Shown here one piece after another: positions 56,441-57,052 of a stretch of DNA of 64,000 nt; position 1 is the stretch's first letter; every line of letters begins with the position of its first letter. The notes beneath the pieces were generated by a model, which was given only the letters and a program-made list of their open reading frames with translations, was not told the origin of the DNA and searched no databases. The translations under genes were made by a program, and so were the position numbers. The stretch comes from Eledone cirrhosa (taxonomy: Eukaryota): positions 76,136,001 through 76,200,000 of the forward strand of contig OZ024747.1 in assembly GCA_964016885.1 (NCBI GenBank). The letters are read 5' to 3'.

Positions 56441-57052
56441 GAGAGACGTAAGATAAGAAAATTATAAAATTATTAAAAAAATTATAAAATTGACTTACTT
56501 ACTAAAATATCACTTCCAACTAACTAGTTTCTGGAATGGAGTAAATATATTTTCCGAAGAATATACCGAAAAGTATTCCGTCGTCAGGAAAGTCTATTTT
56601 CATGTAAGTTTCCAGGCATAGCGAGGACTCTGGAAACTTATTTAAAAAATAATTCAGTGGAAAGGAAATAGCGAAGCGTGGACTGAAATCCTAGCCATTG
56701 AGAAAATCACTGCCTCTACGTCTTTGGCAAATTCAAAAAGAATCAATCACGTGACATCGAGGTCAATCGGTGGAAAGCGAGTTGTTAATAAGACAGCGGC
56801 CTGCCTACTACTATAGCAGCAGTCATGGCCAATATTGCTCGACAAATGAATTGGAGATAATTATAAAGAATTTATATCTACTAACATTTATATACATACA
56901 GATGCATATCAATGCTAGCAAATATATAGGTTTTGTCTTAGTAACATTGTAGTTCAATGCATGGGGTTGCAGAACAATAATATGAGAGACGTAAGATAAG
57001 AAAATTATAAAATTATAAAAAAAATTATAAAATTGACTTACTTACTAAAATA
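56441..57052 (-). mobile_element. Diverged 543-bp relative of the array unit (~1.1 copies, terminal direct repeat), in (TA)n
   Basis: GAGAGACGTAAGATAAGAAAATTATAAAATT...CTTACTAAAATAT occurs at 56441 and again at 56984. It is colinear with the 560-bp unit (shared AAGAATCAATCACGTGACA, TTGCTCGACAAAT, GTTCAATGCA, GCAGAACAATAATAT). Confidence 0.85.
56512..56593 (-). ncRNA. Type I hammerhead ribozyme (diverged variant)
   Basis: Minus strand: ACTTTC-CTGACGA-c-GGAAT...ATTCC-a-GAAAC-TAGTTA-GTT-GGAAGT. Confidence 0.8.

Follow-up and report, generated by a model that had tools for sequence, protein, structure and literature searches.

A dispersed non-coding repeat of Eledone cirrhosa with a variant hammerhead motif is likely a non-LTR retrozyme

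INTRODUCTION

A 64,000-nt stretch of the Eledone cirrhosa genome (assembly GCA_964016885.1, contig OZ024747.1, positions 76,136,001 to 76,200,000; hereafter the window) contains, next to a diverged relative, a 543-bp unit with a hammerhead-like motif. A first-pass annotation had compared the two and read the differences between their stems as compensatory. Here, we ask whether the motif is kept as an RNA structure, whether the RNA is likely to cleave in the animal, and what kind of element carries it. We propose, with good though incomplete confidence, that the element is a non-LTR retrozyme with a unit of 511-572 nt and a doubly inserted type I hammerhead, whose RNA likely self-cleaves at GUU and for which a Penelope-type reverse transcriptase, acting in trans, is the likely agent of copying into (TA)n.

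RESULTS AND DISCUSSION

Element A and its family

Element A (Table 1) comprises 1.13 units, with a terminal repeat identical to the unit start at 69 of 70 positions; its 5' end lies 8-9 nt beyond the upstream predicted cut, and its 3' end is a fixed site, S1, followed by (TA)n. The adjoining 560-bp array is, judged by sequence, a sister subfamily (B), with 369 of 529 alignment columns identical between the A and B units (70%), and all six window copies of A and B have a type I hammerhead layout. The longest stop-free frames, from stop to stop, are 72 codons in A and 99 in B, the GC contents of the units (0.34 and 0.36) are under the 45% limit of retrozymes, and the whole-unit folds of both lie below those of shuffles, as in a highly paired unit. 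Conserved blocks exist outside the ribozyme too; for the E-box-like block TGTCACGTGATTGATTC a promoter role would be a guess. From the other subfamily-A copies listed, element A is set apart by a G>A change at stem II pair six and by AGTT replacing AATT in loop III. At 56493-56502 (minus), shortly past the cut, a conserved GTAAGT(AAGT) resembles a splice donor and also belongs to the distal 3' strand of stem I. No A>G excess that would point to RNA editing was seen (22 A>G vs 21 T>C). Elsewhere, the window holds a 20-bp minisatellite of 53 copies (32951-33968), a 93-bp tandem repeat of 3.4 copies (28157-28471), and long minus-strand open reading frames (ORFs) at 39780-45218 (961 codons stop to stop), whose motifs suggest a LINE-like element.

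Table 1. Coordinates of element A, its ribozyme parts and the adjoining sister array within the window.
Feature	Position	Strand	Remarks
Element A	56441-57052	minus	543-bp non-coding unit plus 69-70 bp repeat of unit start
(TA)n tract at S1 end of element A	56325-56440		further tracts ~57053-57070 and ~59300-59320
Subfamily B, minus arm	57064-57951	minus	3' end at S2; core starts 57900, 57337
Subfamily B, plus arm	57945-59303	plus	2.4 units of 560 bp; 3' end at S1; core starts 58032, 58592, 59152
Internal copy of S1 (first fixed 3'-end site)	56975-56991	minus	
Internal copy of S2 (second fixed 3'-end site)	56853-56872	minus	
Block TGTCACGTGATTGATTC	56740-56756	minus	no A/B difference; E-box-like
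Stem I	56498-56608	minus	proximal ACTTTC/GGAAGT (56593-56588 / 56517-56512), distal CTTAC/GTAAG (56608-56604 / 56502-56498)
Predicted pseudoknot, 5' strand	56597-56601	minus	GAAAA (GAGAA in other subfamilies)
Core CUGACGA (C3-A9)	56581-56587	minus	
Extra nucleotide after A9	56580	minus	C, but A in one subfamily
Stem II	56533-56579	minus	GGAAT (56579-56575) / ATTCC (56537-56533), 6 bp in family; internal loop; distal hairpin 56544-56567
Predicted pseudoknot, 3' strand	56568-56572	minus	UUUUC (UUCUC in other subfamilies); stem II internal loop
Distal helix of stem II	56567-56560 / 56551-56544	minus	GGTATATT / AATATATT
Extra invariant A between C11.1 and G12	56532	minus	
GAAA, short palindromic stem III, GUU	56518-56531	minus	GAAAC 56531-56527, GUU 56520-56518; predicted cut between 56518 and 56517

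Genome-wide, the tight pattern CTGAYGACG-N40-62-CAGAAACTAATTAGTTGG has 9,478 exact matches in the 3.0 Gb assembly and its reversed control has none. By these counts, element A is one of ~10^4 copies of a non-coding mobile repeat of ~540 bases with a hammerhead-shaped motif and two extra core bases. Tandem units are 511-572 nt long (59 spacings) and carry one hammerhead each, as retrozymes do; in subfamily A, units at the same site diverge by 1.5% vs 2.3% between sites.

Stems I and II are kept as structure

The core and stem strings quoted in the first-pass annotation are all found on the minus strand at 56512-56593, and its remark that the core persists through divergence stands: at 70% identity between A and B, all 16 core positions besides N7 are the same (0.70^16 is ~0.003). 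Among 173 copies, from loci partly picked for core variants, stem II pair 2 occurs in all four Watson-Crick types (G-C 64, A-U 41, U-A 37, C-G 26, other 5) and pair 5 mainly in two (U-A 105, G-C 60, other 8). On a quick tree that used only sequence outside the ribozyme (45 copies), pair 2 shows three changes, all two-sided, and pair 5 shows two double changes; the compensatory change described in stem II, from GCAAT/ATTGC to GGAAT/ATTCC, is upheld. In an alignment of 30 representatives, from which a chimeric row and a near-duplicate were left out and to which two window copies were added, the proposed structure pairs in 87.5% of cells against 82.4% in shuffles and slid controls pair in 32-49%. 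Double-change cells number 55 vs 18.7 in shuffles, a count reached by none of 500 shuffles and by no slid control; the number of pairs with a double change is unexceptional, being matched by 44 of the 500. Covariation across these copies shows stems I and II to be conserved as structure, in keeping with the earlier suggestion of selection on the RNA and of a motif that is no chance match.

Two further claims of the annotation hold in part. The stem I difference between A and B does keep pairing, but as a paired indel and not a substitution. The distal hairpin of stem II varies freely in sequence, yet has z < -1.5 in 23 of the 30 representatives, with subfamily A among the weakest, so that the claimed replacement of one distal helix by another is backed by the family and not by this copy. 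Its own helix has little stability (-1.7 kcal/mol, z -0.7), with a leading GG at two positions that are hypervariable in the subfamily. These positions, 56566-56567 of the window and 417-418 of the subfamily A unit, immediately follow the pseudoknot strand on its 3' side; they have four alleles and vary among units inside one insertion at 5 of 14 sites. The isolated ribozyme region of element A folds like shuffles (z -0.05), and the hammerhead was not obtained in minimum-energy folds of the A and B ribozyme regions.

Stems I and II are likely joined by a pseudoknot, GARAA/UUYUC, for which the evidence is moderate: of 136 copies, 130 have a Watson-Crick combination at its variable pair, 3 have G·U and 3 have A·C, and this pair has one double change on the 45-copy tree. 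For stem III, folding gave no stable monomer hairpin. The family palindrome would form a 12-bp duplex between two copies at -10.8 kcal/mol (-8.0 for the window copy), and stem III probably forms between two units, in line with the dimer model of PMC4209133.

A displaced G-C pair and an extra N·A step in the core

The motif has the CUGANGA core, GAAA, NUH triplet, three helices and open helix I of type I hammerheads. A Watson-Crick 10.1-11.1 pair directly beside A9 and G12 is absent; C·A or A·A intervenes, in a column paired in 10% of cells of the 30 representatives. An invariant G-C pair sits one step out, immediately behind the C...A, so G10.1-C11.1 is displaced and not lost. The first-pass annotation had correctly seen that both variants keep the C...A juxtaposition, but had placed it at the site of the canonical pair, which has instead moved outward.

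The extra A is as invariant, in these copies, as the catalytic G12: it is replaced in 37 copies genome-wide vs 82 for G12, and retained in 84 of 85 core matches at loci picked regardless of core. A pattern with C directly before GAAAC has 12 matches, every one an A-to-C substitution and none a deletion. The extra C is replaced in 417 copies, the first 100 of which listed contain, by hand count, 60 A, 39 T and 1 G; the A variants are mostly from one subfamily, and the T variants lie at CpG and over many subfamilies. Variants that make a Watson-Crick pair (U·A, C·G) are scattered across many subfamilies, whereas A·A has its own, so that in these lists Watson-Crick-creating changes founded no subfamilies and A·A did. 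From these counts we infer that a non-canonical N·A step, made up of the invariant A and the additional C or A, lies between A9·G12, a sheared pair in known hammerheads (PMC11300833), and the kept G-C pair. The N7 of G10.1 binds the core metal (PMC6961537), which may explain the retention of the displaced G. Cleavage would probably be slower with the N·A step; as a point against cleavage here, a viroid hammerhead cut far less well when a single C was inserted after A9 (PMC3705267).

The triplet is conserved too: it varies in 84 copies, and 23 of these (hand count) are one GUA subfamily, the sole subfamily-level triplet change and one that occurs in natural hammerheads (PMC1636495). Counting against cleavage, GUG accounts for 16 of the 84, of which a single local duplication supplies 4 and a single subfamily 3; the remaining triplet variants are scattered.

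The Rfam hammerhead model had no match at gathering score in the 64-kb window, nor at E up to 10 in 54500-64000, where the matches returned were hairpin and microRNA-type noise. On sequence, the ribozyme is a hammerhead variant and not a canonical member. A paper on small dimeric Penelope hammerhead variants, reportedly by Lunse et al. in 2017, may already show such variants. For the present repeat family or an insertion before G12, the literature search gave a single AGAAA row, 1 of the 56 in Fig. S3 of PMC4209133 and of uncertain identity; the supplement of PMC7229834 may already contain such variants.

A looser core pattern has ~3,100 matches genome-wide (control 10), and most of the 100 listed belong to an unrelated family with a short stem II, a GUC triplet and the same A·A step (L252-L271), in which only 61 copies have a different base at that step. 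Same-strand neighbours of this second family lie ~437-444 bp apart among the matches listed. The window itself contains other hammerhead-like motifs: an inverted pair at 55374-55761 (cores at 55640 plus and 55495 minus, G·U at the stem II base, GUC triplet); one at 56077 (plus), seen in 4 copies in the fetched loci, whose 10.1-11.1 pair is U·U and whose stem II is short and stem III palindromic; one at 59443 (plus) with the canonical G-C, in a piece common to an internally deleted Penelope-like element (L086:3505-5560); and one at 3141 (minus) that combines the canonical G10.1-C11.1 and a GUA triplet with a long insert in stem II.

Copies often end just past the predicted cut

In a first survey of 200 element blocks, 18 5' ends fell within 20 nt past the predicted cut vs ~7 per bin. 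A set of 91 insertions at 90 loci, all on C1, was then picked independently of the core, as the first of 564 matches listed to a 3'-end pattern; with two censored and two ending inside the masked anchor region, 87 were scored. In this set 32 of the 87 5' ends lie at 0 to +27 past the cut, or 12.9 per 1000 nt of exposure vs 1.7 elsewhere (~8-fold, P 1.6e-15), a peak 27 nt wide and not sharp, whose +27 edge was picked after the data were seen; only 2 lie within 60 nt upstream. Loci fetched after the peak was first seen have 25 of 79 ends at 0-20 and 4 at +28 to +60, a more AT-rich stretch, so AT content does not explain the peak. Inverted arms end at +1 to +27 in 19 of 62 cases. Stopping is partial, at 20 of 74 on the first pass and 11 of 24 on the second, a rise that is not significant (P 0.13). 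Since copies so often end just past the predicted cut, the RNA likely self-cleaves in the animal, and the positions of these ends argue strongly for partial ribozyme cleavage in vivo, giving the template a defined 5' end. Transcription start may be an alternative source of the peak.

The nearest competing explanation, which we regard as unlikely, keeps the same element but makes its RNA conserved and catalytically silent, as a protein-binding or folding signal, with the 5' pile-up due to stalling of the enzyme at the 3' strand of stem I or to a transcription start. Positions +1 to +25 are indeed that strand, and a second, smaller pile-up at 441-480 (5.3 per 1000 nt) covers the opposite strand and the start of the core, so structure alone can halt copying; moreover, ribozyme mutants of an anole element had no effect on insertion in vitro, and RNA-seq gave no reads that ended at the cut (PMC11167929). 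Against a silent RNA, stops drop from 16 per 1000 nt to 0.5 on crossing the predicted bond, even though structure is greatest in the 60 nt upstream of it, and G12 and the triplet are conserved as catalysis demands.

Penelope-like insertion anatomy

Among 173 copies, 3' ends fall at S1 in 50 and at S2 in 33, with 28 read-through and 62 unclassed; S1 lies ~62-77 nt and S2 ~178-195 nt past the cut, and both are AU-rich. Beside S2-anchored insertions, 50 of 62 inverted arms start at S1. Partial tandems, an inverted 5'-truncated arm, two fixed 3' ends and AT-rich or (TA)n targets are all present, an insertion structure typical of Penelope-like elements (PMC8557442). An autonomous partner, with a reverse transcriptase plus GIY-YIG ORF flanked by the repeat, was not found in the sampled loci, and with no partner ORF there we infer a Penelope-type enzyme. 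Pfam gave no family above cut-off for three Penelope-like ORFs. We take these ORFs to be Neptune-like, on their motifs and the account of CX2-5CxxC given in PMC8557442.

Alternatively, an autonomous Penelope-like element might have the unit as its terminal repeat (pLTR), the copies being truncated remains of that element, as would suit an anatomy that is Penelope-like throughout and the Penelope-type ORFs nested in the same TA tracts. We consider this quite improbable: tandem units are joined without an intervening ORF, none of 53 distinct 5' flanks shares an in-register upstream continuation, and the one endonuclease ORF that abuts a unit (L068) is nested there by chance: this ORF runs into different 3' sequence in 19 of its 19 other copies. 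The ORFs of L086 and L087 were likewise set aside as partners, being located past a TA tract and ending in other sequence. That the family is a satellite amplified at the DNA level, its apparent covariation a product of shared ancestry, would suit some matches that are local duplications (e.g., four copies at C5:84.71-84.72 Mb) but is very improbable, being already contradicted by dispersed insertions of 1-4 units with fixed 3' and variable 5' ends and by stem II, where two pairs together account for five double changes on the tree.

In the cycle that we propose for the retrozyme, arrays would be transcribed as multimers, in which stems I and II, kept as structure, would probably be docked by the GARAA/UUYUC pseudoknot while stem III pairs two units, and the extra C or A would form, as the copy counts suggest, a non-Watson-Crick step with the invariant A. 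A fraction of the ribozymes would then cut, as the 5' ends strongly imply, and leave a template with a defined 5' end. Copying by the presumed enzyme would begin at S1 and S2, often one per strand, to give the inverted arms seen in the insertions, and would halt randomly or near the cut, passage through uncut sites producing arrays.

In subfamilies whose internal S2 is CTCTAT, ends consist of (CT)n and then (AT)n: 564 ends have at least five CT vs 10 that run straight to (AT)n, and tract lengths are 5 to 32 (e.g., L044, L109, L111, L116, L172-L251). At the fetched loci, 41 internal junctions are CTCTAT, and far non-inverted flanks have a CT tract in 0 of 28 cases and TA in 19 of 28. Such tails fit, and are possibly due to, reiterative, telomerase-like copying at initiation, or they are possibly the inherited flank of a master copy.

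Comparison with known systems

Judged on the features of the group that sequence can test, the element works like a non-LTR retrozyme. It resembles those of animals (Cervera and de la Pena 2020, PMC7229834; Li, Clavereau and Pollet 2026, bioRxiv 10.64898/2026.07.22.740005) in its non-coding tandem units with one type I hammerhead each, low GC, stable fold and thousands of copies. The unit of 511-572 nt exceeds the 170-400 nt of PMC7229834 and lies inside the 51-972 nt of the preprint; the doubly inserted core and the long stem II with a predicted pseudoknot also set it apart, and the 5' ends indicate templates that are at least partly linear and cut. Retrozymes have been proposed as derivatives of Penelope-like elements (bioRxiv 2026.07.22.740005; PMC7229834), and, as a point against cleavage, 8 of 9 Xenopus retrozyme dimers are reported without cleavage in vitro (bioRxiv 2026.07.22.740005).

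With the hammerheads of Penelope-like elements (Cervera and de la Pena 2014, PMC4209133), the present motif has in common the extra base after A9, the conserved G10.1-C11.1 and a short palindromic stem III, but their consensus runs from C11.1 directly into GAAA, whereas two unrelated families here keep an additional A that is near-invariant. The anole Poseidon element PAc (Frangieh et al. 2024, PMC11167929) likewise has two internal starts 3' of the ribozyme, AT-rich targets and extension of both strands; its starts are spaced 30-40 nt apart vs ~110-120 nt here, it starts at a non-homologous site while our junction sequence matches the target repeat, and the element described here has no ORF and genomic 5' ends that mark the cut. 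Both a U10.1-U11.1 mismatch and stem I-II pseudoknots have been described (Perreault et al. 2011, PMC3088659); here, by comparison, the step is C·A or A·A, the predicted pseudoknot would use the stem II internal loop, and the variant is fixed in ~10^4 animal copies.

CONCLUSION

The likely pseudoknot, the retroelement anatomy and the size of the family are additions beyond the first-pass annotation. New here are the likely stem I-stem II pseudoknot and genomic evidence for cleavage in vivo, a process that, like the purpose of Penelope and retrozyme hammerheads, is described as open in PMC8557442, PMC4209133 and PMC11167929. The edge of 5' ends at the predicted bond constitutes a cleavage test applicable to any genome, and the family offers a natural series of ~10^4 sequences for one core variant. 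Given that this variant is missed by Rfam, such ribozymes are probably undercounted. A wider reading, which we hold tentatively and at somewhat less than even confidence, is that hammerheads include a subtype with an obligatory non-Watson-Crick N·A step at the stem II base, fixed in two or more unrelated repeat families, whose cleavage in vivo defines the 5' ends of Penelope-type templates, such that the genome would be a fossil cleavage map, and that the same enzyme would add (CT)n by telomerase-like reiterative copying from the CUCUAUAU site. If the enzyme does make the (CT)n tails, this would connect these relatives of telomerase with the addition of repeats and with the origin of microsatellites.
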